Source of the DNA: a virus
Taxonomy: Duplodnaviria > Heunggongvirae > Uroviricota > Caudoviricetes
Virus record (IMG/VR): IMGVR_UViG_3300022218_000001
Span: 71,179-108,753 of that record
DNA: 37,575 bases
Strand: one strand, 5' to 3'
The notes beneath the pieces are model-generated. The model saw only the letters and a program-made list of their open reading frames with translations, had not been told where the DNA came from and ran no database searches. The translations under genes and the position numbers were made by a program. Positions 64 through 23,600 of the stretch are shown here, piece by piece (position 1 is the first letter of the stretch; every line of letters begins with the position of its first letter).

Positions 64-1047
64 ATGAAGATTCTCTACACTTCCAAAACTCCGCTCGCCG
101 GTGTTTGCGAGAAGATGTGCAGAACCATCAACAAATACTTTGGCGGCGAGCATGAAGCTCGGGTCCTCAATAAGGGGCCTGGGAAGCATCGGTGGTACTG
201 TCGAGATCCAAAGAAGCTTGTTCCTGCGTACAGGGTAGACAACAAGGACCACGTCTCAGAATGCCTGGAATGGGCTGATGTGATTCACTGCATGGCGAAC
301 GTTGGTGTGGTCTTCTTTGGTCGAGAGGATCTCCTCCGCAAAAAAACTTGGGTCTACCAATGGCACGGGGCTCAGATATGGCCTTTTGAGAGAGTGTGGC
401 TACCTCGGCACTACCCGCATGTCCGGTTCCTCCACATAGGGCAGGGCTGGGTTGAAAGTGCACAAGATCAATCGAAGTTCTTCAAACCATTCTTTGAGCA
501 ACACGGCGCCATTGTTGTCCCTAATGTTATCACTGGCGATGATCCCCTTCACACTCCGCTCCCGTGGTCGAAGAGGCATCGCTGCCCTGTTGTTGGGTTT
601 GCTCCATCGCAGCGCAACGACGGGGCTGTGAACAAAAAAGGTGTTGGTCTTGTGAAGAGGGAGAGCGGAGGGGTCCGGGTGGATTTGATTTGTGGTTTAG
701 CGTTTGAGGATTGCCTCAAGCGAAAGCAGAAGTGCAAGCTCGGGATCGACGAGGTCGTCACCCCGATGTACCATCTATCCGGCTTGGAGTTTCTTGCTCA
801 GGGGACGCCGTGTATTTGCAGCTATACAAGTGAGACAGAGCGTATCTTGAAGGATGCTACCGGGTCGGATAGGATGCCATTCATCAATGCCAAGGGCAAA
901 ACTTTGAATGGAAAACTGCGAGCTTGGGCTGACTTGGGGACAGCCGACAGGGAGTTGATGGGGAAGGAGGCCAGGGAGTGGTTTGATGAGTTTTACCACC
1001 CACGCCTCATCATCGAGAAGTACCTCGACGTGTATTGCAGGGGATAA
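64..1047 (+). CDS. Glycosyltransferase, GT-B/GT4-like (paralog of 3395-4420)
   Basis: 327 aa. The C-terminal half (GIDEVVTPMYHLSGLEFLAQGTPCICS...GKEAREWFDEFY) fits the GT-B donor-binding domain. It aligns by eye with 3395-4420. Confidence 0.7.
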   Translation: MKILYTSKTPLAGVCEKMCRTINKYFGGEHEARVLNKGPGKHRWYCRDPKKLVPAYRVDNKDHVSECLEWADVIHCMANVGVVFFGREDLLRKKTWVYQWHGAQIWPFERVWLPRHYPHVRFLHIGQGWVESAQDQSKFFKPFFEQHGAIVVPNVITGDDPLHTPLPWSKRHRCPVVGFAPSQRNDGAVNKKGVGLVKRESGGVRVDLICGLAFEDCLKRKQKCKLGIDEVVTPMYHLSGLEFLAQGTPCICSYTSETERILKDATGSDRMPFINAKGKTLNGKLRAWADLGTADRELMGKEAREWFDEFYHPRLIIEKYLDVYCRG

Positions 1048-1059
1048 GGAGGAAGAGAC

Positions 1060-2153: not shown

Positions 2154-2875
2154 CAGCACAGTTCAGGGAAATGATTGGACCCCTCCAGGGGTCATGCAGA
2201 GGGCTTCGTTGTTATATCGTGGGGACAGGGCCAACGATGGATGACGTGAATCTCTCGAAGCTAAGGGGTCAATACATCATGGCTCTTAATGGGGCTGTGT
2301 TGAAATTTACCAACCTTCGTTCTTATCCAGATGCTTGGTGGGTTTGGTATGACGCTCGAGCCTATCGTGAATTGTGGAGCCGTGTAAAAGACCAATGGCG
2401 GCGTATCCAATGTATCATCCATAAGAAGGGGATGGAGGATATGCGCTCGCATCTTGGTGCTGGTCGTTATGTGGAGTACGTCAAGGATAATTTTAGAGCC
2501 TCGAGGACTGTGGCGGAGACCGCGATTCTCCTCTGCCAGTTTCTTGGTTTCAGCGAAGTGGTGCTTGTCGGGATTGACGGGATGCAGGCGCGCGACGGGA
2601 TCCCTTATGCCTCTGGCTTTGAATGGAAGCATTGCCGGTTCATGACAGCCGGACAGCAAGAGAGCTGTCAGAAATCAAGCGCGCAGATGGTCCAAGCCTT
2701 CGAAGATCTAAAAGAGAAGCTCGCAGATCGTGGTAGGGTGCCACGAATAATTCAAACGTCGGTGGCTTATCCTGTACGCGACCAATTTGAATTCGTACCG
2801 TTTGATAAAATCGTAGAAGAAGAGGTCGTGAAAGTTGGCCCGACCAAGCCTGCAAAATCACATCCGAAGTTTTGA
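2150..2875 (+). CDS. Maf/DUF115 (MptE-like) protein, putative CMP-nonulosonate transferase #1
   Basis: CYIVGTGPTM, IMALNGAV and FLGFSEVVLVGIDG match the GxGP[ST]...N...GxD pattern of this family. ATGA overlap with the previous gene. Confidence 0.7.
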   Translation: MTAQFREMIGPLQGSCRGLRCYIVGTGPTMDDVNLSKLRGQYIMALNGAVLKFTNLRSYPDAWWVWYDARAYRELWSRVKDQWRRIQCIIHKKGMEDMRSHLGAGRYVEYVKDNFRASRTVAETAILLCQFLGFSEVVLVGIDGMQARDGIPYASGFEWKHCRFMTAGQQESCQKSSAQMVQAFEDLKEKLADRGRVPRIIQTSVAYPVRDQFEFVPFDKIVEEEVVKVGPTKPAKSHPKF

Positions 2876-3398
2876 GAAAGCTTATGCCAGTGGGTGGCGC
2901 AGTGATCCAACAGGGCATCACCGGACTATCTTTCGGCTTTCTCCGTTTTTTCGTGACCATGGTGTAGAGAGGATCCTTGACATCGGTTGTGGCCGTGGCC
3001 TTGTACTGAAGCAGCTTGCAATGGATGGTTTTGATGTTCTTGGAACGGAAGTCGTTCCTTGCCTCCTTGCAAAGGATCTAAAATGGATGTCCGCTGCTCC
3101 GACCCCAGTTCATGATATGGATATTTTTGTCGACAATACATTCGACCTTGTGCTCATGACCGATTTTTTAGACCACCTTCGTGACGAGCAGGAGGTCGAC
3201 GATGCGCTTAGCCAGGCGAGCCGCTTGGCCTCGAATGGAATTATTGTGACCTTGGGAGGGCCTTCATCTCTAAGGACCATCGATCAGCCGCGCGATTGGT
3301 GGCGTGAAAAAATCTGTGCATTCATTAAGTTTCCGGTGCGTACGAACATGACCTATGAGAGCATTGACGGGTACGCATTTTGGGAGGGAGATGAATGA
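2835..3398 (+). CDS. Class I SAM-dependent methyltransferase (paralog of 8676-9326)
   Basis: ILDIGCGRG, FDVLGTE and FDLVLMTDFLDHL. TTG start with AGAGG upstream; the start is uncertain. Confidence 0.8.
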   Translation: MARPSLQNHIRSFEKAYASGWRSDPTGHHRTIFRLSPFFRDHGVERILDIGCGRGLVLKQLAMDGFDVLGTEVVPCLLAKDLKWMSAAPTPVHDMDIFVDNTFDLVLMTDFLDHLRDEQEVDDALSQASRLASNGIIVTLGGPSSLRTIDQPRDWWREKICAFIKFPVRTNMTYESIDGYAFWEGDE

Positions 3399-4420
3399 AG
3401 ATTTGTCACTTCGTTGGTCACAGCCTTGTACGCTACACCCCAGGGCGCATTGCGACTCTCTGGGGCCGCTTCACCGAACACGAAGGACGAGCTTTTGCCT
3501 GTCGGCGCACAGGCGGTTGGCTTTTTCACGAGCCTCTCAACCCCTATGGTTTTTACTGTCCAAAACAAATGCACAAGGGGCCTCTTAAAGATTGGGTCGA
3601 AGCCGCCGATGTGCTTCACTTCCACGATGACAGCTACCCCTCAGTGCTCGAGGGGTGGCGGTGTGACCTGCGTGGCAAAGTAAAAATCTACCATGCTCAC
3701 ATTGGCAATATCCCCGATCGTTTTTTTAAGCCTCGAAGTGGGCGCCTGAAGTGGCGAGAGGATGTTAGCTACGCGGGCATTACAAATGGGTATGGGCACC
3801 TGTTCGATGAAGACGAGCGCCGAAACCCAGGAAGAAAGTGGGGCCGCTTGCCGGATGTCTTAGATCTCGACAGCCCCGTGTTTCGTCAGAGCCCGACCCT
3901 CTACCCAGACCCAAATGACAAAACGCTACGTGTGGTCTATACCTACTCAAACAACAGAGAAGATGGGAAGATTAACGCCAAAAGGCCAAAGGCGCATGCA
4001 CGTCTCTTAGTTGGTATCCCGGGGGTCCAATACATAGCTGTCTGTAATAGACCGTTCGAGGAAGCGCAGGCAATCAAGGCCTCTGCTCATGTCGTCCTTG
4101 AGGAATGCTTTACTCAATACCTCCACCTTTCGGCGCTGGAGGGGGCCGCAATGGGGAAGCCAGTTGTTACAAGCTTCAACCAAGCAACAAAGCTTGAGAC
4201 TTCAGGCGCCGTTGGCGCCCCGCTCAGTGAATGGCCATTCATCGAGGCAGGGCCAAGGACGCTGCGTAGGGTCATTGAGAAGTTGAGAGATAACCGTGAG
4301 CTACTTGAAGAATGGGGAAAGAAAGGCCAGCGGTGGATGGAAACCTATTATACTGCCCCAAGCCTTCTGGCCCGATATGAGGAGTTCTATGAGCGAGCGA
4401 GAAAAGATCAAGGCCTTTGA
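3395..4420 (+). CDS. Glycosyltransferase, GT-B/GT4-like (paralog of 64-1047)
   Basis: 341 aa. Contains AHVVLEECFTQYLHLSALEGAAMGKPVVTS...GKKGQRWMETYY. Confidence 0.7.
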   Translation: MKICHFVGHSLVRYTPGRIATLWGRFTEHEGRAFACRRTGGWLFHEPLNPYGFYCPKQMHKGPLKDWVEAADVLHFHDDSYPSVLEGWRCDLRGKVKIYHAHIGNIPDRFFKPRSGRLKWREDVSYAGITNGYGHLFDEDERRNPGRKWGRLPDVLDLDSPVFRQSPTLYPDPNDKTLRVVYTYSNNREDGKINAKRPKAHARLLVGIPGVQYIAVCNRPFEEAQAIKASAHVVLEECFTQYLHLSALEGAAMGKPVVTSFNQATKLETSGAVGAPLSEWPFIEAGPRTLRRVIEKLRDNRELLEEWGKKGQRWMETYYTAPSLLARYEEFYERARKDQGL

Positions 4421-4622
4421 TTGGTCGAAGTTAGATGAAGCGTTCAAGGCCATGCCCCCTGAAATTCGCAGTCGAATTGAAGTACCACTGAGAGCATCGA
4501 GCCCTCGTGTATTCCTTCTAACATTAAGGAATCTTCGAGACACACTCGATAATGCCATCAAGCATATGGAGGAGGTGGTTGGTGACAATCCCAGCACTGA
4601 TCTTAGCACGGGGCGGAAGTAA
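4389..4622 (+). CDS. Small hypothetical protein (77 aa, MSEREKIKAFDW...)
   Basis: ATG at 4389 follows GAGGAG and is in frame with track ORF 4296-4622. The sequence looks helical. Confidence 0.5.
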   Translation: MSEREKIKAFDWSKLDEAFKAMPPEIRSRIEVPLRASSPRVFLLTLRNLRDTLDNAIKHMEEVVGDNPSTDLSTGRK

Positions 4623-5304
4623 AGGGATCCCTGGCAAAAACCTCAAGGAGGTTGGCGGGCAAACGCTGCTCGCCCATTGTGTCAGCGTAGCCACTGCAAG
4701 CCGGCTATCTCCTGTCTTTGTGTGGAGCGACAGCCCGGACATCCGAGCCGAGGGCACAAGGATGGGAGCCAAGTGTCCACCTCGAGATGGGCGTTTCGCT
4801 ACAGATACAATTACGTCTGAAGAAAGCGTTGCGGCGTTTTTGGAAGAGCATGACCCTGGAGAAAAGTGGAAGGCCGTGGCTCTGCTTCAATGTACGACGC
4901 CGTTTCTAACTACGAAGGCGTTGGATTTGTGCGTTGAGAAATTCGAGGAGGGTGGGCGAGATGCTGTTATTACTGTAGTCGATGCTACGCAGAGATATCT
5001 TGGGTACCCACAGCGCGGAAATGGCGGCTCTGAGTTTGTTCCAATGCGTCCCTATCGCGCTCTTCGGCAAGAAGAAGCAATGTCGATGTACATGGAAAAT
5101 GGTGGGTGCTATTTAGCCAAGCGGGAGCTTTGGGTCTCTGGTCGCCGCATGGGGCGAAATAACGGAGTTGTCGTAATGCCATGGTGGGATGGTTTGGAGA
5201 TAGATGAAAAGGATGACCTTGAGGTCGCGAGGGTCTTGGCACCGCTGAGACGGGTGAGTAAGACCACGGCCGTTCGCTTCATCGATACGGAGGTGCGACC
5301 ATGA
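4582..5304 (+). CDS. neuA: CMP-N-acylneuraminate (nonulosonate) cytidylyltransferase
   Basis: Canonical ILARGGSKGIPGKN, plus LLQCTTPF, ENGGCY and EIDEKDDL. GTG at 4582 follows GGAGGAGG. Confidence 0.9.
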   Translation: MTIPALILARGGSKGIPGKNLKEVGGQTLLAHCVSVATASRLSPVFVWSDSPDIRAEGTRMGAKCPPRDGRFATDTITSEESVAAFLEEHDPGEKWKAVALLQCTTPFLTTKALDLCVEKFEEGGRDAVITVVDATQRYLGYPQRGNGGSEFVPMRPYRALRQEEAMSMYMENGGCYLAKRELWVSGRRMGRNNGVVVMPWWDGLEIDEKDDLEVARVLAPLRRVSKTTAVRFIDTEVRP

Positions 5305-5852
5305 CACATGTTGCCAGCACGCGCTATCTCGAGCTTGGGCCAGAAAAGAACAATCATACGAGGAACCGTGATCGATTCTCTCATTCTTGGCAAACAGCAG
5401 GGCTGTCTGAGAAGACACCATCGGACTGTCCGTTAGATCTCAACGGAGAATTCCCATGGCCAGACGGCCGCTTTGAGGTTGTGTACTCTTCGCACGTTTT
5501 AGAACACCTCGCCGCCCCTCGTTCTTTTCTGAAAAATTGTTTTCGAGTACTTGAGCCGCATGGGCTTATACGGATCGTTGTTCCGTCAATGCCGTTCGTT
5601 ATTGACCGATATGTCAAGGGCAAGGCCTCTCTCGATCAAGTCCTTGAGTGGGCACGGGACTATCGTCCAATGAAGCATCGGGATGGCTATGATGAAATAA
5701 AGATCGTATCTCTGCTTGAGTCGGCTGGGTTTGAGTGGGTTCGCACACTCAAGCCGAACAAGTCGATAATGCCAGAGATGAGAGATCCTTATTTTTCTAC
5801 AAGGCCAAACAAGAGCATTAGGTGTGAAGGGAGGAAGCCATGCCTAAAGTGA
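5301..5852 (+). CDS. Methyltransferase type 11-like protein
   Basis: DLNGEFPWPDGRFEVVYSSHVLEHL...CFRVLEPHGLIRIVVP. Motif I is degenerate (LELGPE). Confidence 0.75.
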   Translation: MTHVASTRYLELGPEKNNHTRNRDRFSHSWQTAGLSEKTPSDCPLDLNGEFPWPDGRFEVVYSSHVLEHLAAPRSFLKNCFRVLEPHGLIRIVVPSMPFVIDRYVKGKASLDQVLEWARDYRPMKHRDGYDEIKIVSLLESAGFEWVRTLKPNKSIMPEMRDPYFSTRPNKSIRCEGRKPCLK

Positions 5853-6697
5853 TTGCTGATATCGGAATCAACCATAACGGCGATATTTCAAAAGTCCTTG
5901 AAATGATTGATGCGGTGAAACATTGTGGTGCGGATTATGTAAAGCTCCAGAAGCGTGACATTGAGAGCTGCTACACTGAAGAAGATCTCTCCAAGCCATG
6001 CAGCTCTCCATGGGGGGCTACAGTTGGCGACAAGGTTTATGGGAGAGAGCTGGCATGGAGCGATTTTCATCTCATCGCAAATAGGTGCGACGAGCGGTCA
6101 TTGGGCTGGTCCGCTTCTTGCTTTGACTTGAAAAGCCTTGAAGAGCTTGAAACTTTATACGGTGAACGCATAGCATTTCACAAGGTCCCAAGCGCAATGG
6201 CGAAGCATGAGGCATTCCTCAAACAGGTGGCATCTTATGGCCGCCTTACTTTCATTAGCGTTGGCCTTGCGTCCAATCTTCATGAGGTCAAGACCGTTTG
6301 TCGCATATTTGAAGAGTTGTCCTGTAAGTATGTTCTAAACATCACCACTGCCCTGTACCCAACATCTCTTGCCCGCTGCAACATTGCGCGAATAGAGACG
6401 ATCAGGAATTTTCGATTTTGTGAGCTTCACCACTGTGTCGGTGTTGGGTACTCCGGGCATGAGGTCGGTCTACTTCCATCTATCGTCGCGGTTTGTTTCG
6501 GCGCAACTCATATCGAGCGGCACTTTACGTTAGATCGATCTTGGTACGGAGCAGATCAGGCCTCCAGCCTTGAGCCAGAAGGCCTTCGTCGCCTATGCCG
6601 TGACGTCTCACAGATTGAAGATATTGCTGGCAGTCCAAAGATTCAGCTCATGGGCGATGAAAAAAACCCTGTGACTTTCTTTAAGGGCACACAATGA
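5840..6697 (+). CDS. neuB: N-acetylneuraminate/nonulosonate synthase (short form, no C-terminal AFP-like domain)
   Basis: IADIGINHNGD, GADYVKLQK, GYSGHE, GATHIERHFT and DQASSLEP. 285 aa. Confidence 0.9.
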   Translation: MPKVIADIGINHNGDISKVLEMIDAVKHCGADYVKLQKRDIESCYTEEDLSKPCSSPWGATVGDKVYGRELAWSDFHLIANRCDERSLGWSASCFDLKSLEELETLYGERIAFHKVPSAMAKHEAFLKQVASYGRLTFISVGLASNLHEVKTVCRIFEELSCKYVLNITTALYPTSLARCNIARIETIRNFRFCELHHCVGVGYSGHEVGLLPSIVAVCFGATHIERHFTLDRSWYGADQASSLEPEGLRRLCRDVSQIEDIAGSPKIQLMGDEKNPVTFFKGTQ

Positions 6698-7131
6698 AGA
6701 AAAAACCTTCTTCACCTCTTGGGAATGTCTATTCAACCGCCGAGCTTAAAACAAAGCACAAGCGAGTGAGGTTTTTTCAAGTGGGGGATGAGTATCTCAT
6801 TAAGCAGGCGTGCGCTATTGCAAATAGGAGGCCTGGGTTCCAAATTCTTGGGCTACCAGAAGATATCGAAATCCTTGGTGTCTGGTATGAGCACTTCTGG
6901 AGAGCGTTCTCTTTCAAGGCGTGCTCGATGGAGTGGCCAGAGCACGACGCCTCGCTCAAGATAATCGACAGACATGAAATTGAGGTCATCGAAGCGCCAA
7001 CAGAAGAAGCGGAATTTGTACTTTGGCGCAAAATGGCAGACGCGGTCACTGCAAATCAGAAGTTAGTCCCAGCCACCGAAGCCATTGACCTTCTTAGGGG
7101 TAAGCAAGATGACAAGAAACGTACTTCTTGA
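6694..7131 (+). CDS. Hypothetical protein
   Basis: 145 aa with an ATGA overlap to neuB. No recognised motif. Confidence 0.55.
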   Translation: MKKKPSSPLGNVYSTAELKTKHKRVRFFQVGDEYLIKQACAIANRRPGFQILGLPEDIEILGVWYEHFWRAFSFKACSMEWPEHDASLKIIDRHEIEVIEAPTEEAEFVLWRKMADAVTANQKLVPATEAIDLLRGKQDDKKRTS

Positions 7132-7825
7132 AGCTCATAACTTCTGGGCTTCAAGTTCGAAGCGAACAAGAGACTTCGCTCATATCCGTGGCACTGGACG
7201 ATGGAGAGACGAAGAGGCATGGCTTCGCATCGGTCGCGGGCACCTTGAGCAGTTCTGTAGTTACTACGATGATGGCATGCAGCCGCTTCGATCTCTCCTT
7301 GAATGGGGGCCAGGAGGAGGATCTAACATCGTCGCTTTCTCCAGGGTTTTTGAGGAGGCCACAGTCGTAGACATTTCCATCGACGCTCTTCGGTCAGCGG
7401 TTATGGCTGTGAAAGATCTTTGCCCAGGGTTTGAAACAAACGCATTCCCACTCACGATCGATGCTCCGAGCGCAGCATTAAAGCTCGGTGCTAATTCATT
7501 CGATTTTTTGATCTGCACTGCTGTTATCCAACACATGCCATCTGTCGAACATTTTATTGAGACCGCAGGCATTTGGAACAAGCTTTTGCGTCCAGGTGCG
7601 TATGGTCTTGTTCAGTTCCGAACCAGGGTCGGCTGCCAAGCGTACCGAAAAAAGAAAAAAGAGAACGGAGGTGCATACAAACACAATGTCAGTCGTTGGA
7701 TGATGCTTCGACAAAAAGAATTCATTCCGATCGTAGAAGGCGCTGGGTTTGAAGTCTTGGATATCGTGAACGGAGAAGAGAGGACAGCGACAGGGTATGC
7801 TTATGCCTGGCTGAAGAACAAATGA
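7109..7825 (+). CDS. Class I SAM-dependent methyltransferase
   Basis: LLEWGPGGGS, VVDIS, FDFLICTAVIQHM and LLRPGAYG. ATG at 7109 preferred over TTG at 7085. Confidence 0.8.
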   Translation: MTRNVLLEAHNFWASSSKRTRDFAHIRGTGRWRDEEAWLRIGRGHLEQFCSYYDDGMQPLRSLLEWGPGGGSNIVAFSRVFEEATVVDISIDALRSAVMAVKDLCPGFETNAFPLTIDAPSAALKLGANSFDFLICTAVIQHMPSVEHFIETAGIWNKLLRPGAYGLVQFRTRVGCQAYRKKKKENGGAYKHNVSRWMMLRQKEFIPIVEGAGFEVLDIVNGEERTATGYAYAWLKNK

Positions 7826-8679
7826 AGCTGCACCGCATGGCGTTTGAGTACTGGGAAGATGAACACACGGCCCTGCTACGCAGCGAACGTCGCGCTGGGT
7901 CTGGGTTCGCACAGGAAGATGACCGATGGGCCAATGACCCAGAGTGGTATTGTCGCCAGCATTTTCACTACGACAAAGATGGTAAAGGACCGTACTTTCT
8001 CAATCGCAGATGCAAAGCCCTCCTGAAACAGCATGGGCCTTTTCGTGGTCGTTACCGAGACGCAGATGAACTGGAGGACACGGCCATCGGCCGAACGGTC
8101 TATCTCTTCTGCCCAGGGCCATCGCTGTCTTGCGTTCCGCCAGATGCCTTTCGCGACGAGATCTCCATGGCAGTTAATTCTGCCGGGCTCCGCATGACAC
8201 CGACCTTCTGGGTGATGGCTGAGAGTGCCTACGCCTTATGGCTCATGAGCGAGCCACAAAAACACCAGCCAGACTGCTGTGTTATTTCGACAGCTCGAGT
8301 CGCTGTTGTGCTCAGGGCGAAAGAACGCGCAGCTCGCCGAGATTTTTTTCGTCGTGTCTTTGTTGCCCGGTGGGAGGAAGAGCTGATCGTCCCAGCTCGG
8401 GTACCGGCGGTGTCTGTCTTTAATGCTCTTGTCGGAGCATGGCAGATGGGCGCTACCAAGTGCGTTGTTTTTGGCTTAGATCTTTCTCGCCCTGACGGAC
8501 AGCCATATGTGGACGGTGTCCAGTTTACGAAAGCGGGGGCTACGAACCCTTTCGATGACCAGGTCAAAGCGTTGCGCCAATTCAAACTCCCAGGCTTCGA
8601 GGTAGTTAACTGCTCCCCTTACAGCAGAGAACTTCTACCAAACTTCACAGCGGTCGATGCATCGGAGTTTTTATCATGA
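7822..8679 (+). CDS. Maf/DUF115 (MptE-like) protein, putative CMP-nonulosonate transferase #2
   Basis: VYLFCPGPSL, SMAVNSAG and WQMGATKCVVFGLDL, with an extra ~85-aa N-terminal region. Confidence 0.65.
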   Translation: MKLHRMAFEYWEDEHTALLRSERRAGSGFAQEDDRWANDPEWYCRQHFHYDKDGKGPYFLNRRCKALLKQHGPFRGRYRDADELEDTAIGRTVYLFCPGPSLSCVPPDAFRDEISMAVNSAGLRMTPTFWVMAESAYALWLMSEPQKHQPDCCVISTARVAVVLRAKERAARRDFFRRVFVARWEEELIVPARVPAVSVFNALVGAWQMGATKCVVFGLDLSRPDGQPYVDGVQFTKAGATNPFDDQVKALRQFKLPGFEVVNCSPYSRELLPNFTAVDASEFLS

Positions 8680-10373: not shown

Positions 10374-10703
10374 ATGAAGCGAAGAGACATGATCAAGTCC
10401 GGGCTCTTGGGTCTTGTTGGCTGTCTTCTACCAAAGCGCCAGGTGACATCGATGGAGGTAACTGCATCGCCGGAAGCCTCAGCCACACGTTCAACAACCC
10501 CACCGCCAAGGGAGATAAATACCCAGGACTACACTGGCTGGCGAAGAACAGAGATTATCCGGGCTGACGGCACTCACTCAATTTCTTACGATGAGGTTCC
10601 GGAGCTGGAGCCAAGTATGAATGAAGTGTTTGGCGATCTTGACGAGATGATTGAGCGCAACCGTGCGCGCTGGACAAGTCGGATTGTAGGCCGTCAGTCA
10701 TGA
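10374..10703 (+). CDS. Small protein with twin-arginine-like signal and lipobox
   Basis: AGGAG RBS at 10361. MKRRDMIKSGLLGLVGC gives an RR motif, a hydrophobic stretch and LVGC. Confidence 0.6.
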   Translation: MKRRDMIKSGLLGLVGCLLPKRQVTSMEVTASPEASATRSTTPPPREINTQDYTGWRRTEIIRADGTHSISYDEVPELEPSMNEVFGDLDEMIERNRARWTSRIVGRQS

Positions 10704-15406: not shown

Positions 15407-16149
15407 CACATGAGGTTCGAAACGTTTACGACCTTGAGGGCTTGGAAAAAGACCGGCGTCTCTGGATCGTAGCTCCTGGGCCAACTTCTTTAGCTTTAAA
15501 GAAATGGGCGCATCTCATGGTTGGGGAGACTGTCATTGCGCTGAATAGTGCGCTTGAAATTATTCCAAAGCCCACTTACTGGCTTTATGCAGACAAGCGG
15601 TTTTCTTGGCTTTATGGCCATGAGCTTCATGGCGATAAGGGCAGGATGAAGCCAGGGCTTTCAACTCCGCATCGAGTCATTGTCCCTCACCATCAGACAA
15701 AAAAGATGCAGCATTACTATGCTGGAGGGGAATTATATTCATTTCATTTTCAGATGGAAATTTCTCGCAGACTGCCGGTAAAGGACCGCGAGGGAAAACC
15801 GTTTTGGTATGCTCCAACCTACCGTTTTATTCCAGGCCATGCTTCTGTAGCCTCAACTGCCTGCAGCATAGCTTGCTTGATGCGTCCACGGGTCGCGGTG
15901 CTTGTCGGGGTCGATTTTGCCATGCCAGACGATGTTTACTACCATCCAGAGGTGAAAAAAAACTTAGGTCCAACAATGAAGACACGCGCTCTTGATAGTG
16001 GTTTATCTTGGTTTCGAGGGGCTTTGACTAAGCGCGGTGGAATCTGGCCTGGGCTAAGGCTTATTACCACATCTGTACATTTGGCAAGTAGGGCACCTGT
16101 TGTTCATCGGAATTGGGAAGAAATAGAGAATGGAGATGACATGCCATGA
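15403..16149 (+). CDS. Maf/DUF115 (MptE-like) protein, putative CMP-nonulosonate transferase #3
   Basis: LWIVAPGPTS, VIALNSAL, YWLYADKRF and AVLVGVDF. Confidence 0.65.
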   Translation: MTHEVRNVYDLEGLEKDRRLWIVAPGPTSLALKKWAHLMVGETVIALNSALEIIPKPTYWLYADKRFSWLYGHELHGDKGRMKPGLSTPHRVIVPHHQTKKMQHYYAGGELYSFHFQMEISRRLPVKDREGKPFWYAPTYRFIPGHASVASTACSIACLMRPRVAVLVGVDFAMPDDVYYHPEVKKNLGPTMKTRALDSGLSWFRGALTKRGGIWPGLRLITTSVHLASRAPVVHRNWEEIENGDDMP

Positions 16150-16334
16150 ATGTAGAACGAGCAATCGAGCAGCTTAGGGAGCTTCCGGATCTTTACGACT
16201 TGGAGATGGACTGCCCGGAGTCTCCAGATAAATGCGTGCCTGTGGACCTTGTCAATATCTCTCTGGCTGGCAACCTTAGAGTCTTGTTGACATTTGAGCC
16301 GTTCGAGCATGATCGAGATTGCCCTTTAGGATGA
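16146..16334 (+). CDS. Small acidic hypothetical protein
   Basis: 62 aa with ATGA overlaps at both ends. Confidence 0.5.
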   Translation: MNVERAIEQLRELPDLYDLEMDCPESPDKCVPVDLVNISLAGNLRVLLTFEPFEHDRDCPLG

Positions 16335-17047
16335 AAGCGAAGATACCAAACTGGGAAGGTTGGATGAAAAGCCACTCTTTCGATGATGGGCCAGTTGATC
16401 CTGACATCGTCGAGCTGCAAGAGCACATCCGTAGAAGGGTGCATTCGCGCAAGCGACAGTTTACCAGTTGGATTCGTCAAGGGGTCCTGGCTGATAGTCC
16501 CATTGCCACTTACGCATTTGGGCCGATCAACCTTCCATGCGAGCCGAAGCTTTTTACTTCGTCCAGGTGGAATGAGCGCAGAACGAATATCCCCCTTCCG
16601 CACGACAGGGAATCCTGGATGCTCGTTCACCGCTACTGGAAGGGCTCCAATAGCTATAGGGGCATCAAAACTCATATTGAGCAATATGGGATGCGTCGTC
16701 CAATTTTTGCTGACATGTTTGTCAATTACGATCCATCGAACAAAAAATTAATGCATCGTTGCTTTGCCTGGCAGGGCGAGAACTGGCCCTGGCCTGTCCT
16801 CATCCTTCGGACAGGTAACGAACGAATCATGATGGCAATGTTTGAGTGGGACTGGATCACAGTCCCGATCATCATACTTGCGAGGGACTGTGGCTTTGAT
16901 CCTGCGATGACTGCTGTATGGAAACTCATCCATGAGCGCAGCAAAATTGGCGGAGTATCGCGCGATATTTGCCGCCTCGCTGATGATAAAGGGGATTTGG
17001 ATATTGGGCTGAACTCTATTTTAGAAGGAATGAACCATGACGGATAG
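16331..17047 (+). CDS. Hypothetical protein with possible ParB/Srx-like domain
   Basis: IKTHIEQYGMRRPI...LILRTGNERIMMA...ITVPIII resembles the ParB N-terminal pattern (GxxxPI...GxxR...VP). Confidence 0.45.
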   Translation: MKAKIPNWEGWMKSHSFDDGPVDPDIVELQEHIRRRVHSRKRQFTSWIRQGVLADSPIATYAFGPINLPCEPKLFTSSRWNERRTNIPLPHDRESWMLVHRYWKGSNSYRGIKTHIEQYGMRRPIFADMFVNYDPSNKKLMHRCFAWQGENWPWPVLILRTGNERIMMAMFEWDWITVPIIILARDCGFDPAMTAVWKLIHERSKIGGVSRDICRLADDKGDLDIGLNSILEGMNHDG

Positions 17048-18398
17048 ACTAAAAGCCGGGGCTGGCCACATAGACATGCTGATCGACGATACAGGGCAGC
17101 GGCCAAAAGTCTCTGTTGTCCTTGGTGTTCGAAATGAGTACCCAGTCATTCTCGGGACAATGTTCAGCTTTATTGATGAGCTTGAATTCTGGGGTTATCC
17201 GTGGGAACTTATCGTAGTCGACAACATGGGGACTGATGACACTCGGCATATTCTTCGGGACAAGTTTCGACGCTGGATCCGAGAGGACCGGCTGAAAGTC
17301 CTCGAGTACGATGACAGAGGTGCTAATGTAACAGTCAGGAATATCGGAGCGCGAGCAGCTACCGGGGATGTTGTCTTCCTCTCAGATGGGCATAACGCCG
17401 TGGCTACAGGCACTTGTCATGGGATGATCCAGGGCTGGCTGAAGCGTGGCGGCCTGTGGCATTCAGCCATCCATATTTGGGGTGACACCAGAGATATCCG
17501 TTGCTATGGGTATACCTTGAGACTCAAGGAACGCTTTTGGGGGAATCTTTCTAGGGGTGTGCCAAAGGAGATCGCCGTCCAGCCAGATGCCACGTATTCA
17601 GCGCCTCGTGTCCCTTTCTATCGAGTCCCAATGGCAAGCCATTGCGCCCTCATGGCCGGGCGTGAAGAATATCTTGATTTCAGGGGCTATTGCGAAGAAT
17701 TCAAGTGCTACGGGGGTGGTGAGCCATACCTCGATATGCTCTGGTGGCTGTTGGGCAAGGAAGTCTGGATCTTCGGCCAAGGGCTCATACGGCATGCCTT
17801 TGGCGTAAACCCGCGCTGGGATGAGCAAAAGAGGCCAGCGCGCATCGAGGATTGGCCAAAGCGCGGTTCGAAGCAGGTGCTCCCTGCCATCGAGGAGCTG
17901 TTCAATAATCCAGAAAAAAGCAAGGTTCGGGGACTTTTGAAAAAATGTCCGGAAAGATGTCACCCGTTGATCCGTGGCTTGATGAAAGACGACAACCTCG
18001 AAATAGACGAAAAAATAGAAGAAGTAAAAAAACAAATCCCAAAGCGAGTCCGCTCCCATGTCTACCACCGCGACGGACACACGAGTGCCGACCTTCATCC
18101 GGGAGATGAGTACCTGCGCTATTCTCGTGGGTACAGTTGGACAAATGACCAATTTCAATTCAACTTCATGCTTTCAGCCTACTGCATAGGGGGCTACGAC
18201 TGGCTCCAGCAAAGATACGAAGTCTATTACCAGGACCGCAAAGGCAACAAAAAGTACGTAGAGGACTTACAGAAGATGCGTCAAGAGGTTTTGCGAGTTG
18301 GGGCTCCTTGGCGAAAATTCATCCAAGAACGACAAATTATGACGCTTGATGAACTTCTGGAACGTAAGCCCTGGGAGAAGTACGACGATCTGGTATAA
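17037..18398 (+). CDS. GT-A glycosyltransferase (GT2/GT27-like) with polypeptide GalNAc-transferase-like motifs
   Basis: VSVVLGVRNE, LIVVDN, RNIGARAATGDVVFLSDGH (DxH), PMASHCALMAGREEY, YGGGEPYLDMLWW and IRHAF. Confidence 0.8.
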   Translation: MTDRLKAGAGHIDMLIDDTGQRPKVSVVLGVRNEYPVILGTMFSFIDELEFWGYPWELIVVDNMGTDDTRHILRDKFRRWIREDRLKVLEYDDRGANVTVRNIGARAATGDVVFLSDGHNAVATGTCHGMIQGWLKRGGLWHSAIHIWGDTRDIRCYGYTLRLKERFWGNLSRGVPKEIAVQPDATYSAPRVPFYRVPMASHCALMAGREEYLDFRGYCEEFKCYGGGEPYLDMLWWLLGKEVWIFGQGLIRHAFGVNPRWDEQKRPARIEDWPKRGSKQVLPAIEELFNNPEKSKVRGLLKKCPERCHPLIRGLMKDDNLEIDEKIEEVKKQIPKRVRSHVYHRDGHTSADLHPGDEYLRYSRGYSWTNDQFQFNFMLSAYCIGGYDWLQQRYEVYYQDRKGNKKYVEDLQKMRQEVLRVGAPWRKFIQERQIMTLDELLERKPWEKYDDLV

Positions 18399-18500: not shown

Positions 18501-18848
18501 ATGGCTAGTATATATTCCATCGTTGGGTGGCGTGCCTGGTATTCAGGCGGCCGAAAGTTTGATAGTGCGACAACGGCCTGGAAGTCTCTGCCCGAGAAGG
18601 GGGTGATAGGGTTCGTCCTCTACCAGAGAGAGAAGCAGCGTCGGCGCATAATGACCGGCGTTACGCTTTACTGGCAGAGCGACGACCTATTCTGCTGCGA
18701 CAACACCGAAGACGCAGACATCCCGGAAGGGCTCGACTCCAGTCGCATCAAGCGTGGCAAGTGGGTCTCCGACGAGGAGTACGGGGCGGCTCAAGAAGAG
18801 ATGCGGGATGCCATGGTCTCCCCAACGAACGAAGAGACCAGAATTTAA
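18501..18848 (+). CDS. Hypothetical Trp/Tyr-rich protein
   Basis: 115 aa with a GGAGG RBS at 18491-18495. Confidence 0.6.
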   Translation: MASIYSIVGWRAWYSGGRKFDSATTAWKSLPEKGVIGFVLYQREKQRRRIMTGVTLYWQSDDLFCCDNTEDADIPEGLDSSRIKRGKWVSDEEYGAAQEEMRDAMVSPTNEETRI

Positions 18849-18860: not shown

Positions 18861-21800
18861 ATGGCAAATCGTCAATTTTACCTTGAGGACGATTATCATC
18901 CAGGATGGGCGCCGGGAACTAACTGGACATACTCCCTCAACCAGTCGCCCGTAGCTGAAAATCCGATTGGCGCGCCTATCACTGGGACTCAGACAGAAAC
19001 AGATTACGCAATCGACACGGCGGCGTGCGGTGAGTCGGACTGGGACGGAACGTGGACAGGGCAAATTGACATCTCGACCGGCGTCAACAAGGTTTACTGC
19101 CGAGTCGGGCTCGTTGCCTTTAATTCAAGCATAACAGAAGGGCCGTTCTGGTCCGACGAGGGGCAATTCGAGATTGAGATTGCGCAAGCGTACAGCTTGA
19201 CGTGGACGGGCCTCAACTGGTCGGTCGCCGGCTCGAGCGACTATGTCGCGATGGTCTTCGAGTGGTTTAACGATAACCATGGCGATATGACGATCTATGT
19301 CGACTCGAACGCAACCTATATCATAAGTCCGTGGGCAGGGCCGACAACATCTGCGTCGACTTCGAAGTCTACGACGAGATCAACGACGAAATCGACATCG
19401 CGCTCGACATCGAGATCTTCTTCGGCTTCTTCGACAAGGTCGACATCGGACTCGACGACAAAATCAACGACGAAATCGACATCGAAGTCCACAACCCGGT
19501 CTTCGTCAGCGTCGACGACTCGTTCAACTTCGATGTCTTCGACGAGGTCGACATCAGCAACTACGACACCTGGCCCTTCAGAAGAATTCATCCTTATTCG
19601 TGACAGCCAGTCTATCTCTACGATTGACGGTGACGGGGCAGAAGTTACAGTCACGCTGTCCGGTACATACCCGAACTCGAACCTGAAAGTCGGGCAGCGA
19701 ATCCGCATTTCCGGGACGACGAACTACAATGGTGTTCACGTCATTACTCAGGTTGACAGCCAGTCCCAGTTTCGTTATGCGGACACTCCTACCCCACTCG
19801 AAAATGTCGGGACCGCTGGTGGGCACTATACCAACCTCTATGACTTTGAGGTTAGTGAGCGCGAAGATCTGACATCGTCAAACAAGATCAAAGTTGCTGA
19901 GATCTATGACGATTTCCCAGGCGGCATCAGGCATTTGGCGCAGGTCGAATTTGACGATGCAAACTGGACAACGGACGCAACTCGATACATCAAAATTGAT
20001 GTTCCAAGAGCAGAGCGAGGTCAACTTGGCCGAGCATACAACACTGGCCCATGGATGTTCTGGGAGGGGGTAACTTTTCCCGGTGGGCATGAAAACGGTT
20101 GCATCCAGCTTTCATCCGCTCTTGATTTTGAGGCCTATGGGATTGAGATTGACGGTTCTGCGAGAACTGATGCAAACAACGCGAAGCGCCTCTTCCAGGT
20201 CTGGAGCACAACGGCTGGCGGGGGGTCCTGTTATCTTCGAGATTGTGTCTTTCATTCAAACGATGAAGATGCAGGGAACGCCGGCGACGGGGTAGACATC
20301 GACGCTGGAACAGCGGCTGGCTATGTCTTCATCGCAGAGAACTGCATTTCCGCATCTGGTACCGATGACGCCTGGAGCTTCTCTGTAGACAACGGCGGGA
20401 CTTTCGACTCTTCATCCTATTGCCACAATTGCATTGCTTACGATTATAATGGCAATGCAACGCCTCAAGGCTGGCATGGGATAACAGATGAAAACGTTAT
20501 TGACATCCGGAACTGCTACTCTGGTAGCAATGGCGGTGCAGACTATGAGGGCAGTGGGACTATGTGGGGGACGGCGGAGAATAATATCTCGGCCGACACC
20601 ACCGCTACGAACATTGGGTCAGGGACGAACAGTATCGCAGCAGCGGATGTTTTTACCGATCCTGCGAATGGCGATTTCACTCCGCTTGCTTACACAGATG
20701 GCCCCAGTGCGAATCCACTTTTTAACGCTGGTACGCCCAATGGTGATACGTTAACAGACATCGATGGAACACCGTGGGGGACCGACATTGATGTTGGAGT
20801 TTTTGCTACACCGGAGTTCCAAGGAACCTCTGCCTCCACTACACGCTCATCCTCTGCATCTACGACGCGCTCGACATCAGCTTCGGCCACAGCCTCAAGT
20901 GCATCATCTTCTCAGTCCACGACACGTTCATCTTCTGCGTCTTCAACGAGATCGACATCTGCCAGTACGACTATTACAGATCCTCCGTTCTTCGAAGATA
21001 CCGATTGGAATATGGAGGAGATCGACAATGGCGATCTCTCTAGTGGTGGGACTCAGCACACAGAAAGCTCTGGCCTCTGTTACGCCAGAGACCGTGATTG
21101 CATTGTCAGTGTTTCTGACGATCTATCAATCCGGGAGTTTGAACGCATTGGATTCACTCCCGTAGGTGATGCTGTCGCCCTTGGAAATGGGATGCTGGAC
21201 ACCGAGGGTATTGTTTATATCGGAGATTGGTTTACAGACTTCGATTTTGCAATACTCGACGAGGGCGCGAACGGAGGGGCCTTTACTCGCATCCATTTAG
21301 TTCCATTTGCACCTGGCCAGACAACCACCCCAACTGGCGTCGTTACGCATGTCCTCAGAAAGATTCCAAGGCACTCTGGGACCTATGGTGGGGAGGGCTG
21401 TGAAGGGCTGGCCTATGACCCTGAACGCGATCTGTTCTATGTCTCCAATCAGGCAGACACAGAAGCGGACGCTGGGATGTGGGAAGTTGATCTCAATACT
21501 ACAGACACCGATGGCGACCCAACGCAGACGTTTCTTTACTCATGGACGGGTGCTGGGGTTGTAAACGGGGGTGCCCCATCGCCAGCAAGTCCAGTGGCGC
21601 TTTCTGACCTGTTTCATGGCTCGCAGCTTGGCGATGCACATCCACGGTCTCCGTTTAATCGGTCGCTCTTTCTTCTGACACGAGACGGCAGTGCATCTCA
21701 GCGCATTGTGATGCAGCTCGATGTTCTTTCAGGTATCATCCTTTCTGTCTTTCAGCATGGAGAAGCGGATCAGGTCGAGGGTCTTTGCTTCGATAATTTG

Positions 21801-23600
21801 TCGACTCGTGGCGACATGTTCCTTTCCAAGGAGCAGCTATCTGGCGGCACCCCTAATGTTTTTAGGTATTCTGTTCTTGGTGGAGCAGCGACAAGCTCAA
21901 TGTCGACTTCTCGTTCCACCTCTAACTCTACTACCAGGTCCACCAGTGCCACCCAGGTAACGTCAGCATCAACGACGAGGTCTACATCTATGTCCTCGTC
22001 GGCTTCGACGACCAGATCTTCGTCGGTTTCGACGACTCGGTCCTCGTCGGTTTCGACCACCAGGTCGACCACAAAATCAACGACTCGAAGCTCGTCCGTT
22101 TCGACCACAAAGTCGACCACAAAATCGACGACTCGCAGTTCCTCTGTCTCAACGACAAAATCGACGACTCGGTCCTCGTCGGTTTCGACCACCAGGTCGA
22201 CCACCAAATCGACGACTCGGTCCTCGTCGGTTTCGACCACAAAATCGACTACGAAGTCGACGACTCGCAGTTCCTCTGTCTCAACGACAAAATCGACGAC
22301 TCGGTCCTCGTCGGTTTCGACCACCAGGTCGACCACCAAATCGACGACTCGAAGCTCGTCCGTTTCGACCACAAAGTCGACCACAAAGTCGACGACTCGC
22401 AGTTCCTCTGTCTCAACGACAAAATCGACGACTCGGTCCTCGTCGGTTTCAACCACCAGGTCGACCACGAAGTCAACTACTCGCAGCTCGTCTGTTTCGA
22501 CGACTCGCTCTACGTCTAAATCGACGACTCGCAGTTCGTCAGTTTCAACAACAAAGAGTACATCTCATTCGAGTTCTGTCTCGACTACCCGCAGCACATC
22601 TGCCACGGCATCCGCCTCATCTGCTTCATCGTCGCTTTCAACTACTCGCAGCTCATCGGTTTCAACAACCCGATCCAGCTCGGTTTCGACAACAAAGTCA
22701 ACTACGAAGAGCACTACGAAATCGACAACGAAGTCGACCACACGTAGCTCAAGTGCTTCAACAACAAGGTCAACATCTGCGTCGTCTACCCGCAGCTCCT
22801 CCGTCTCAACGACAAAGTCTACGAGCAAAAGCACGACGAAAAGCTCCTCTGTTTCCACAACACGAAGCTCTTCAGTCTCGACCACCAAATCAACGACGAA
22901 ATCAACGACGCGGTCCTCGTCAGCTTCCACCACCCGTAGCTCTTCTGCTTCAACAACAAAGACAACAACGAAGAGTACGACTCGGTCCAGCTCGGCCTCG
23001 ACGACCCGCAGCTCCAGCGTGTCTACGACTAGGAGCAGTTCTGTCACAAGGTCTGCATCATCGGCCTCTTCATCGCTATCGACAACGAGATCTTCGTCTG
23101 TTTCGACCACTCGCAGCTCATCTGTATCGACAACAAAGTCAACAACGAAGAGCACAACCCGGTCAACATCGAAATCGACGACCCGCAGCTCCAGCGTTTC
23201 TACGACCAAATCAAGCTCGGTTTCATCGACTCGTTCATCGTCCGTCTCTACAACTCGATCTTCGTCAGTTTCCACAACGAAATCGACAACTGCAAGCACG
23301 ACGAGGTCGTCATCTCTATCGTCTACAAAGTCCAGCTCTGTTTCCTCGACAAAGTCTACGACCAAGTCCACAACACGCAGCTCGTCGCTGTCATCTACAA
23401 AGTCAACGACACGCAGCTCCTCTGTATCTACAACAAAGTCCTCCTCTCTTTCCTCGACTCGATCAACATCGATGTCTACTCCGATACCACCAGAGGGGGC
23501 GTTTTCTTTAATCCTCGATGACATTTCAAATGAACTGACGCTTGAGGATGTGTCAGTCGAACTAACCCTTGACGTTATTTCCTCAACGGAGGTGAATTGA
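18861..23600 (+). CDS. Giant multidomain Ser/Thr-rich (mucin-like) protein, putative virion fibre or decoration protein
   Basis: 1579 aa with a GGAGG RBS and no signal peptide. Layout: beta-rich N-domain, S/T linker, beta-helix-like domain ending TDIDGTPW..DVGVF, S/T linker, SdiA-regulated/YjiK-like propeller, 530-aa S/T tract, 39-aa acidic tail. Confidence 0.8.
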   Translation: MANRQFYLEDDYHPGWAPGTNWTYSLNQSPVAENPIGAPITGTQTETDYAIDTAACGESDWDGTWTGQIDISTGVNKVYCRVGLVAFNSSITEGPFWSDEGQFEIEIAQAYSLTWTGLNWSVAGSSDYVAMVFEWFNDNHGDMTIYVDSNATYIISPWAGPTTSASTSKSTTRSTTKSTSRSTSRSSSASSTRSTSDSTTKSTTKSTSKSTTRSSSASTTRSTSMSSTRSTSATTTPGPSEEFILIRDSQSISTIDGDGAEVTVTLSGTYPNSNLKVGQRIRISGTTNYNGVHVITQVDSQSQFRYADTPTPLENVGTAGGHYTNLYDFEVSEREDLTSSNKIKVAEIYDDFPGGIRHLAQVEFDDANWTTDATRYIKIDVPRAERGQLGRAYNTGPWMFWEGVTFPGGHENGCIQLSSALDFEAYGIEIDGSARTDANNAKRLFQVWSTTAGGGSCYLRDCVFHSNDEDAGNAGDGVDIDAGTAAGYVFIAENCISASGTDDAWSFSVDNGGTFDSSSYCHNCIAYDYNGNATPQGWHGITDENVIDIRNCYSGSNGGADYEGSGTMWGTAENNISADTTATNIGSGTNSIAAADVFTDPANGDFTPLAYTDGPSANPLFNAGTPNGDTLTDIDGTPWGTDIDVGVFATPEFQGTSASTTRSSSASTTRSTSASATASSASSSQSTTRSSSASSTRSTSASTTITDPPFFEDTDWNMEEIDNGDLSSGGTQHTESSGLCYARDRDCIVSVSDDLSIREFERIGFTPVGDAVALGNGMLDTEGIVYIGDWFTDFDFAILDEGANGGAFTRIHLVPFAPGQTTTPTGVVTHVLRKIPRHSGTYGGEGCEGLAYDPERDLFYVSNQADTEADAGMWEVDLNTTDTDGDPTQTFLYSWTGAGVVNGGAPSPASPVALSDLFHGSQLGDAHPRSPFNRSLFLLTRDGSASQRIVMQLDVLSGIILSVFQHGEADQVEGLCFDNLSTRGDMFLSKEQLSGGTPNVFRYSVLGGAATSSMSTSRSTSNSTTRSTSATQVTSASTTRSTSMSSSASTTRSSSVSTTRSSSVSTTRSTTKSTTRSSSVSTTKSTTKSTTRSSSVSTTKSTTRSSSVSTTRSTTKSTTRSSSVSTTKSTTKSTTRSSSVSTTKSTTRSSSVSTTRSTTKSTTRSSSVSTTKSTTKSTTRSSSVSTTKSTTRSSSVSTTRSTTKSTTRSSSVSTTRSTSKSTTRSSSVSTTKSTSHSSSVSTTRSTSATASASSASSSLSTTRSSSVSTTRSSSVSTTKSTTKSTTKSTTKSTTRSSSASTTRSTSASSTRSSSVSTTKSTSKSTTKSSSVSTTRSSSVSTTKSTTKSTTRSSSASTTRSSSASTTKTTTKSTTRSSSASTTRSSSVSTTRSSSVTRSASSASSSLSTTRSSSVSTTRSSSVSTTKSTTKSTTRSTSKSTTRSSSVSTTKSSSVSSTRSSSVSTTRSSSVSTTKSTTASTTRSSSLSSTKSSSVSSTKSTTKSTTRSSSLSSTKSTTRSSSVSTTKSSSLSSTRSTSMSTPIPPEGAFSLILDDISNELTLEDVSVELTLDVISSTEVN
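19341..19580 (+). repeat. Ser/Thr low-complexity tract 1 (80 aa)
   Basis: STTKSTTRSS-type tetrapeptide modules. Confidence 0.9.
20826..20978 (+). repeat. Ser/Thr low-complexity tract 2 (51 aa)
   Basis: TSASTTRSSSASTTRSTS... Confidence 0.9.
21891..23480 (+). repeat. Ser/Thr low-complexity tract 3 (530 aa), including a 132-bp tandem repeat
   Basis: Modules STTK/STTR/SSSV/SSSA. Near-identical 132-bp units start at 22038, 22170 and 22302, with a partial copy at 22434. Confidence 0.95.

Follow-up and report, generated by a model that had tools for sequence, protein, structure and literature searches.

A phage gene island couples a polypeptide GalNAc-transferase-like enzyme to Ser/Thr-tract fibre genes and may O-glycosylate the phage's own fibres

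The DNA analysed here is the last 37.6 kb (positions 71179–108753) of an IMG/VR virus genome of 108,753 bp (IMGVR_UViG_3300022218_000001), which is complete by CheckV; this whole stretch of 37,575 nucleotides, referred to as the window, contains the greater part of a gene island that is a candidate system for glycosylation of virion fibres. The genome is that of a 108.7-kb circularly permuted siphovirus, the permutation being evident because the open reading frame (ORF) beginning at window position 36969 reads on in frame at the genome start, with no stop. All real genes of the window lie on the + strand, with overlapping stop and start codons for most. The island measures ~30 kb, corresponding to ~28% of the genome, and the window holds its last two thirds; Pfam scans place its onset ~12 kb 5′ of the window, at genome 59.2 kb, immediately after the gene of a P22-type coat protein (genome 58135–59079), with the large terminase and scaffold protein also encoded upstream. 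Its place in the late structural operon is thus after the coat gene and ahead of the head-completion genes, all on one strand. A first-pass annotation, made from the letters of the window, had described a co-directional, overlapping run of glycosyltransferase (GT), nonulosonate, Maf/DUF115 and methyltransferase genes, ending 462 bp and one small gene before a giant Ser/Thr-rich protein that is itself followed by neck and tail genes. This layout was recovered using Pfam, PHROGs, ESM Atlas and PDB searches and a hidden Markov model (HMM) of paralogues, with every gene class found where it had been placed and with the spacing to the giant gene as described. The extent of the island required revision, insofar as the listed genes stand and their run begins ~12 kb before the window.

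The last enzyme gene of the island (17037–18398, + strand) encodes a 453-aa GT-A glycosyltransferase, which Pfam assigns to GT2, and which fold and profile comparisons assign to GT27, the polypeptide GalNAc-transferases (ppGalNAc-Ts). An AlphaFold model computed with 53 homologues reached a mean predicted local distance difference test (pLDDT) score of 92.6, and its top 50 Foldseek hits in the PDB were all polypeptide GalNAc-transferases (E ~1e-13), with ~250 columns aligned to ppGalNAc-T catalytic domains at a root-mean-square deviation of 3–4 Å. When a profile of the 53 sequences was compared with the PDB, the top 15 matches were 15 ppGalNAc-T sequences (E 9e-16 to 1e-9), whose alignments extended through the entire catalytic domain; generic GT2 enzymes aligned to the same profile over its first ~100–130 positions only. 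Among the homologues, D117 and H119 of a DxH motif are nearly invariant, and G227, G228, E229 and H253 are invariant. The DxH, GGE and H253 positions align with DAH, WGGEN and GH of TgGalNAc-T3, which belong to the metal-binding and Gal/GalNAc-T motifs of the animal and Toxoplasma enzymes. A hydropathy scan revealed no hydrophobic segment that could serve as a membrane anchor, and Pfam returned no ricin hit indicative of a ricin-type lectin domain, residues 260–453 being a helical/beta domain; by these features it is related to the GT27 catalytic domain and is not a full-architecture member of the family. Judged from profile and model, the predicted enzyme is specifically ppGalNAc-T-like rather than a generic GT2, so that its initial designation as ppGalNAc-T-like is borne out by fold, profile and the conserved DxH, GGE and third His. 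We propose it as the putative initiating enzyme, with putative GalNAc transfer from UDP-GalNAc to peptide Ser/Thr suggested by genomic context, namely its Ser/Thr-tract neighbours and a GalE-type epimerase, both described below. The family comprises 70 clusters at E ≤1e-30, and 1486 at E ≤1e-10, in 1.84 billion representatives.

From the end of the GT-A gene at 18398, a gap of 462 bp, with one small ORF inside (115 aa, 18501–18848, + strand; a weak homologue occupies the same place in the related locus L015), leads to the giant ORF at 18861–23600 (+ strand). Its translation, its tracts and the domains it shares with tail genes describe a 1579-aa modular fibre protein, 41% Ser plus Thr, with 695 residues in three Ser/Thr tracts. 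Specifically, an N-terminal domain (residues 1–153) is followed by a tract (154–244), a beta-helix-like domain (245–649, an Atlas lead), a second tract (650–712), an SdiA-regulated-type propeller (713–1005), the longest tract (1006–1546; window 21876–23498, + strand), built of 4-aa units according to Tandem Repeats Finder, and a tail of ~35 aa. The three tracts together consist of 41% Ser, 29% Thr, 8% Arg, 6% Lys and 1% Pro. Sequence searches of the PDB with the two globular domains yielded no useful match. Recent tandem expansion is suggested at window 22029–22555, where four copies of a 132-bp (44-aa) unit, 90% identical, sit within periodicities of 12, 24 and 48 bp. GC skew is negative at 21000–24500 (–0.13, –0.10) and positive elsewhere on the strand; C-rich Ser/Thr codons are the likely cause, and not a strand switch, because the tract fills most of this stretch. 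The N-terminal domain is not conserved among relatives. The C-terminal tail, an L-x-L-x-D repeat (residues 1547–1579, window 23499–23597), is conserved in L014 (E 5e-7), and its L011 counterpart is similar by eye. Given an unconserved N-terminus and a conserved tail, the anchor of the protein may be C-terminal, and the tail may represent an anchoring or oligomerisation element.

The GT27-like gene is followed by a Ser/Thr-tract ORF in most related phages. Fourteen loci were informative, comprising the window, G001, G002, L011, L012, L014–L017, L019–L022 and L027; four distant GT homologues were looked up, three of which were on contigs of ≤3 kb and uninformative. A Ser/Thr-tract ORF is present ≤~2.4 kb downstream of the GT27-like gene in 12 of the 14, with enzyme identity down to ~27%. 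In each of the close relatives (GT identity 84% in G001, 72% in L011 and 57% in L014), a homologous giant Ser/Thr protein is encoded at the same place. In distant loci (48% in L015, 31% in L016, 27% in L017 and 28% in L019), the Ser/Thr-tract ORF lies within ~350 bp, and its product has no BLAST similarity to the giant. L021 and L022 carry long Ser/Thr-tract ORFs of 1094, 658 and 578 aa on the + strand (L021 13449–18706; L022 11456–13192); the globular parts of the two L021 proteins match those of L015 and L019, and the L022 protein matches nothing. Public gene calls show minus-strand genes over these regions of L021 and L022, which is the wrong strand; opposite a run of repeated Ser/Thr codons the other strand also stays open, and such genes are thus easily mis-annotated. 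The same Ser/Thr-codon effect is seen in the window, in the minus-strand ORFs 21770–22468 and 22565–23620. A 502-aa minus-strand gene called on the contig of P0042 may conceal a Ser/Thr ORF. In G002, the GT gene lies at the contig end, and the contig start, reached by circular closure, carries Ser/Thr ORFs of 1135 and 596 aa. In the distant representative L027, a 555-aa Ser/Thr protein follows the GT. One of the close relatives, L011, corresponds to 1.97–2.00 Mb of NCBI CP070677.1, a 4.3-Mb Candidatus Latescibacterota contig, in which a prophage-like, syntenic region carries methyltransferase, epimerase, GT4-type, GT27-like, giant Ser/Thr, Ig-like, minor head and tail genes; its location suggests the host phylum and a temperate relative.

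In 12 loci, 32 ORFs occupy the first three positions behind the GT, and 12 of these are Ser/Thr-tract ORFs, compared to 2 of 191 elsewhere in those loci (odds ratio 57, Fisher p 7e-10), a statistic that overstates independence because the loci share ancestry. By their globular parts, the neighbouring Ser/Thr proteins sort into three or more families among which no similarity could be detected, with two orphans besides; tract charge also varies between loci, Lys plus Arg making up 10–20% in some and 0–2% in others. The occurrence of different globular families and different tract charges beside the same enzyme argues that the tract, rather than any particular protein, is what selection kept.

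This adjacency bears on an alternative in which the island glycosylates other virion proteins (coat, Ig-like or tail tube), as in mycobacteriophages, with the Ser/Thr tracts being only flexible linkers. L012 and L020 retain the island and the GT27-like gene with no Ser/Thr ORF in the stretch covered there, from the GT gene to the Ig-like gene, and the island begins right after the coat gene; moreover, the Ig-like protein and a 157-aa protein are conserved in all relatives. Glycans at the C-termini of mycobacteriophage capsid and tail-tube proteins are also reported, according to PMC12619734. However, no Ser/Thr-rich tails occur on the coat and tail-tube (major tail) proteins of the present phage. 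Furthermore, linkers alone do not explain Ser/Thr-tract ORFs of varied families after the GT in 12 of 14 loci, and GT27 enzymes act on Ser/Thr-dense peptides. We therefore regard modification of other virion proteins as unlikely.

If the target is instead a Ser/Thr-tract fibre, then the giant is not the sole possibility. The ORF at 36969–37575 (+ strand) is the 5′ end of a gene that, joined to genome 1–5906 (L004), encodes a 2170-aa tail fibre with five Ser/Thr tracts. This protein sits at the canonical tail-fibre position, has beta-helix-like and propeller domains in common with the giant, and has an orthologue (P0003) in the corresponding position of L009 and L010; it is a second candidate acceptor. 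The SdiA-regulated-type propeller recurs in a tail-tip protein (34732–36561, + strand; PF06977 E 2e-10), which BLAST aligns to giant residues 735–1003 at 36% identity, indicating a homologous propeller. Such domain sharing helps to evaluate the possibility that the giant is glycosylated without being part of the virion, for example as a soluble or released beta-helix/propeller enzyme such as a depolymerase that lysis sets free. Between relatives, the giants' N-terminal domains are unconserved and offer no evident common virion anchor there, and a central beta-helix lead is typical of depolymerases. The giant gene nevertheless sits among head, neck and tail genes, both of its central domains recur in the canonical tail fibre and one of them, the propeller, in the tail-tip protein, and the ~35-aa C-terminal tail held in common with L014 (and similar by eye in L011) could be an anchor. 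A released, non-virion role consequently seems improbable.

Two genes of the island point to synthesis of a nonulosonate in its activated form, conjugated to cytidine monophosphate (CMP). The product of 4552–5304 (+ strand) is a NeuA-type CMP-nonulosonate synthetase, in which the PF02348 cytidylyltransferase domain is present (E 8e-17) and whose closest relatives are CMP-Neu5Ac synthetases, as seen in PDB matches (1qwj, E 5e-18). The product of 5840–6697 (+ strand) is a 285-aa NeuB-family nonulosonate synthase with the PF03102 TIM-barrel domain (E 9e-48, 163 bits), matching sialic acid and pseudaminic acid synthases in the PDB and without the C-terminal SAF domain.

Candidate transferases for such a sugar are three Mini-Maf/DUF115 (GT42-like) proteins, all on the + strand: a 241-aa protein (2150–2875; PF01973 E 3e-4, under the gathering cut-off, and paralogue HMM), a 285-aa paralogue (7822–8679; genome paralogue HMM E 3e-10, round 1) and a 248-aa paralogue (15403–16149; PF01973 E 5e-3, paralogue HMM E 1e-11). 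Iterated HMM searches brought the number of Maf-like paralogues in the genome to eight, of 210–405 aa and mostly under 310 aa. All are linked by the paralogue HMM, and one, encoded upstream of the window, scores 34.7 bits against PF01973 (cut-off 34.6). A Maf-like profile of 16 sequences matches the Campylobacter sialyltransferase CstII (E 5e-6) and the central domain (residues 273–438) of the Magnetospirillum Maf 5mu5 (E 3e-5). In terms of profile similarity, the predicted Maf-like proteins are related to CMP-nonulosonate transferases by their catalytic core, and the paired matches to CstII and Maf fit transfer from the CMP-nonulosonate that NeuB and NeuA would make.

The remaining enzymes could supply, extend and decorate a glycan. 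A GalE-type UDP-hexose (uridine diphosphate-hexose) 4-epimerase is encoded at 9293–10225 (+ strand; PF01370 E 3e-33), with UDP-glucose 4-epimerases as its best PDB matches (E 1e-23). An enzyme of this type would fit the provision of UDP-Gal or UDP-GalNAc as donor and speaks against a PseB/LegB-type first step; assignment as a PseB/LegB-type dehydratase was considered and is unsupported, the PDB sequence search leading to GalE-type enzymes. Three GT-B glycosyltransferases accompany it, all on the + strand. The 327-aa GT1-type protein at 64–1047 (Atlas features 0.98 to GT1 clusters) has a weak PDB profile match to PglA, and the 341-aa protein at 3395–4420 is its paralogue by BLAST. The third, at 11403–13157, is a GT4-type enzyme with a C-terminal extension, assigned from the Atlas and from an AlphaFold model (pLDDT 80) whose top PDB matches are GT4 enzymes. 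It is the best-conserved protein of the island (80% identity in L002), and almost every related locus has a homologue upstream of its GT27-like gene. Even the smallest islands (L021 and L022) hold GT4-type, methyltransferase, Maf-like and GT27-like genes together. The GT4-type model resembles generic retaining GT4 enzymes (GlgM, BshA and MshA). A role as a GtfA-like initiator of serine-rich repeat glycosylation was considered and dropped, with no GtfA among the top 50 PDB hits.

Seven methyltransferase genes are interspersed among these enzymes, likewise on the + strand. Five encode S-adenosylmethionine (SAM) methyltransferases identified by Pfam at 1464–2153 (Methyltransf_11/23), 2835–3398, 5301–5852, 7085–7825 and 8676–9326, and a sixth, at 10700–11434, encodes a Methyltransf_24 protein resembling TylF/CmcI-type sugar O-methyltransferases (E 4e-15). 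The seventh, at 13851–14480 (Pfam E 9e-21), is a SAM methyltransferase whose pairing with the GT4-type gene is, by synteny, conserved across related loci. Two further conserved proteins have no assignable family: a 307-aa island protein (14483–15406), whose only match is phrog_18407 (unknown function), and a 242-aa protein (16319–17047, + strand), which has a counterpart of 46% identity at the same position in L014, and whose gene, in close relatives, always immediately precedes that of the GT27-like enzyme. Pfam scans of the island outside the window revealed another seven methyltransferases, a nucleotidyltransferase, a GT1-like enzyme and a HAD phosphatase, in addition to three Maf-like proteins, a GHMP kinase and a sulfotransferase. 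The island as a whole thereby contains 14 methyltransferases, six Maf-like genes, one sulfotransferase and the GHMP kinase/nucleotidyltransferase/HAD set. A DegT aminotransferase is encoded in a separate minus-strand operon, not in the island.

A hydropathy scan found no multi-pass membrane protein in the island, and its Pfam scans matched no flippase, polymerase or lipid-carrier transferase family (Wzx/Wzy/WecA-like). Together with the absence of Ser/Thr tails on coat and tail tube, these results point to direct glycosylation of protein in the cytoplasm, and they argue against both work on host surface polysaccharide and the mycobacteriophage pattern. Flagellin glycosylation is the best-known setting of Maf, NeuB and NeuA, which raises the question of whether the enzymes remodel a host structure (flagellin, S-layer or surface polysaccharide) during infection or lysogeny, for instance in superinfection exclusion. 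A relative is integrated in a Latescibacterota chromosome, and phage glycosyltransferases that change serotype are known (PMC12619734). However, the island is embedded in the late structural operon, between coat and head-completion genes, and lacks the membrane machinery listed above; its conserved neighbour is a phage Ser/Thr-tract protein. Late operons are, in addition, normally silent in a lysogen. Remodelling of the host is thus, in our assessment, a doubtful explanation, with a low probability similar to that of a released giant.

Hypermodification of phage DNA with sugars can be considered on similar grounds, since DNA-glycosylating phage glycosyltransferases are well known (PMC12619734) and an exonuclease gene lies inside the island. 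The latter (12913–13851, + strand; PF00929, phrog_192 E 1e-30) encodes a DnaQ-like 3′–5′ exonuclease and overlaps the end of the GT4-type gene. Its absence at that place from L002 and L011 gives it the look of a recent insertion, and it is probably not part of the glycosylation system. NeuB, NeuA, Maf, the GT27-like enzyme, the sugar O-methyltransferases and the sulfotransferase correspond, moreover, to protein or glycan chemistry and not to base modification. DNA modification is accordingly the least credible of the alternatives, and we consider it very improbable.

Overall, the recurrence of the GT27-like/Ser/Thr pairing in most related phages suggests that this phage probably sugar-coats its own fibres. 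We consider it reasonably probable, on the strength of gene content and order, that the island enzymes O-glycosylate the Ser/Thr tracts of the 1579-aa and 2170-aa fibres in the cytoplasm, before assembly. In such a scheme, a set of enzymes that are all soluble would modify the tracts linking the globular modules of the fibre proteins. The GalE-type epimerase would supply the epimer of a UDP-hexose or UDP-HexNAc, the GT27-like GT-A enzyme would place the first sugar on Ser/Thr, and the GT1- and GT4-type GT-B enzymes would lengthen the chain. NeuB and NeuA would make a CMP-nonulosonate for transfer by the mini-Maf (GT42-like) paralogues, and the many methyltransferases, with the sulfotransferase encoded upstream of the window, would tailor the glycan. 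We infer from sequence the acceptor, the order of the steps, the identities of the sugars, the virion location and the benefit, which may be fibre shielding, stiffening or adhesion. The first-pass annotation had likewise proposed phage-encoded O-glycosylation of a virion fibre, and this proposal is supported by the specific GT27 match, the adjacency in 12 of 14 loci, the Maf, NeuB and NeuA genes and the lack of membrane machinery. Its further idea that the enzymes are encoded beside their acceptor fits the giant as presumed acceptor, since this adjoins the island, and requires modification insofar as the 2170-aa fibre is an acceptor candidate as well. Similarly, its expectation that related phages would carry the cluster together with a Ser/Thr-rich protein was realised in 12 of 14 loci, with no adjacent one in L012 and L020.

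Several observations weigh against fibre glycosylation as formulated here. The annotated precursor route to a nonulosonate is incomplete. The Maf-like copies in the window reach 21.0 and 17.0 bits, or have no match at all, where the PF01973 cut-off is 34.6 bits, and the paralogues match the central domain only, without the flanking domains of full-length Maf proteins (~600 aa or more). With respect to the acceptor, Ser/Thr tracts can be plain flexible linkers, a second Ser/Thr fibre means that the giant is not unique, and only gene position and domains in common with tail genes place the giant in the virion. The L012 and L020 islands, and the shared ancestry of the loci compared, detract from the adjacency in the manner described above.

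The proposed system can be compared to eukaryotic mucin O-glycosylation, with which it shares a homologous catalytic domain (by fold and profile), the DxH, GGE and third His motifs, a presumed acceptor that is a long Ser/Thr-dense tract, and a GalE-type epimerase that could supply the donor. The phage enzyme differs from eukaryotic ppGalNAc-Ts in having neither membrane anchor nor ricin-type lectin domain and in its different, helical/beta C-terminal half; the setting is the bacterial cytoplasm, and the tracts contain hardly any proline and carry, in this phage, a positive charge. Maf flagellin islands (Campylobacter, Aeromonas and Magnetospirillum; 5mu5) likewise combine, as soluble enzymes working in the cytoplasm, the CMP-nonulosonate pair with Maf/GT42-like transferases, and their target is Ser/Thr of a protein whose assembly takes place later and extracellularly. 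In contrast, the phage has eight short paralogues matching the central catalytic domain only, a presumed acceptor that is a fibre rather than flagellin, and additional GT27-like, GT1/GT4, sulfo- and many methyltransferases.

In mycobacteriophages, a few enzymes reportedly modify the C-termini of capsid and tail-tube subunits (Freeman et al. 2023, as cited in PMC12619734). There, too, phage glycosyltransferases are encoded beside structural genes and are considered to modify the phage's own particle, as proposed here. The present phage differs in its ~30-kb island, its nonulosonate genes and its dedicated giant Ser/Thr-tract proteins as putative acceptors, and in a coat and tail tube without such tails. 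The serine-rich repeat (SRR) adhesins of Gram-positive bacteria provide a further parallel, in that long Ser-rich repeats are glycosylated intracellularly by enzymes (GtfA/GtfB and more) encoded beside the acceptor gene (PMC7948813). Very long Ser-rich regions and soluble enzymes encoded next to the acceptor are common to both; the GT4-type enzyme of the phage, however, resembles generic GT4 enzymes, and the conserved neighbour is GT27-like. Pfam scans of the island and its flanks gave no hit to an accessory Sec system (SecA2/SecY2-like). None of these known systems unites in one phage a GT27-like initiator, genes for a nonulosonate and dedicated genes for Ser/Thr-tract fibres, and no published description of a nonulosonate, mucin-type or GT27 system in phages emerged from a literature search.

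By extension, we suggest tentatively, at somewhat below an even chance, that several lineages of tailed phages possess a prokaryotic counterpart of mucin biosynthesis, in which a soluble GT27-like enzyme linked to Ser/Thr-tract fibres would build a bottle-brush glycoprotein coat without a membrane compartment; in the present phage, capping with a nonulosonate, methylation and sulfation would be added to it. If true, phage particles could bear dense, self-made mucin-like glycan brushes, with effects on adhesion to surfaces or hosts, on resistance to proteases and grazing, and on recognition. GT27-type initiation on Ser/Thr tracts would then not be confined to eukaryotes, and phage fibres would constitute a new class of heavily glycosylated protein. 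Enzymes that O-glycosylate peptides and transfer nonulosonates in soluble form and without a membrane, supplied with a defined acceptor gene alongside, would also be attractive for glycoengineering. In practical terms, gene callers that put Ser/Thr genes on the wrong strand make the pairing easy to miss in databases.

With regard to the wider genome, a megablast of 25 kb against deposited phages gave no match. No tRNA genes were found in the genome, which therefore provides no Ser/Thr tRNA support. At the junction between the GT and giant genes, a promoter scan gave background level only, and a terminator scan gave no convincing + strand terminator. Downstream of the giant, on the + strand, follow the 121-aa Ig-like protein (23597–23962; Pfam Ig_SibA E 1e-5, and synteny, being present in all relatives), a minor head protein (24377–25573; SPP1 gp7-like, PF06152, phrog_4611 E 7e-21), the major tail protein (27025–27810; phrog_807) and a tape measure protein of 1206 aa (28777–32397; phrog_3779 and phrog_167). 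The gene at the tape-measure position of L020 (16154–21125) is called at 3171 aa, compared to 1206 aa in the window. Finally, two overlapping ORFs in different frames (27862–28350 and 28143–28787) lie between the major tail and tape measure genes, which is the usual place of tail chaperones made by programmed frameshifting.

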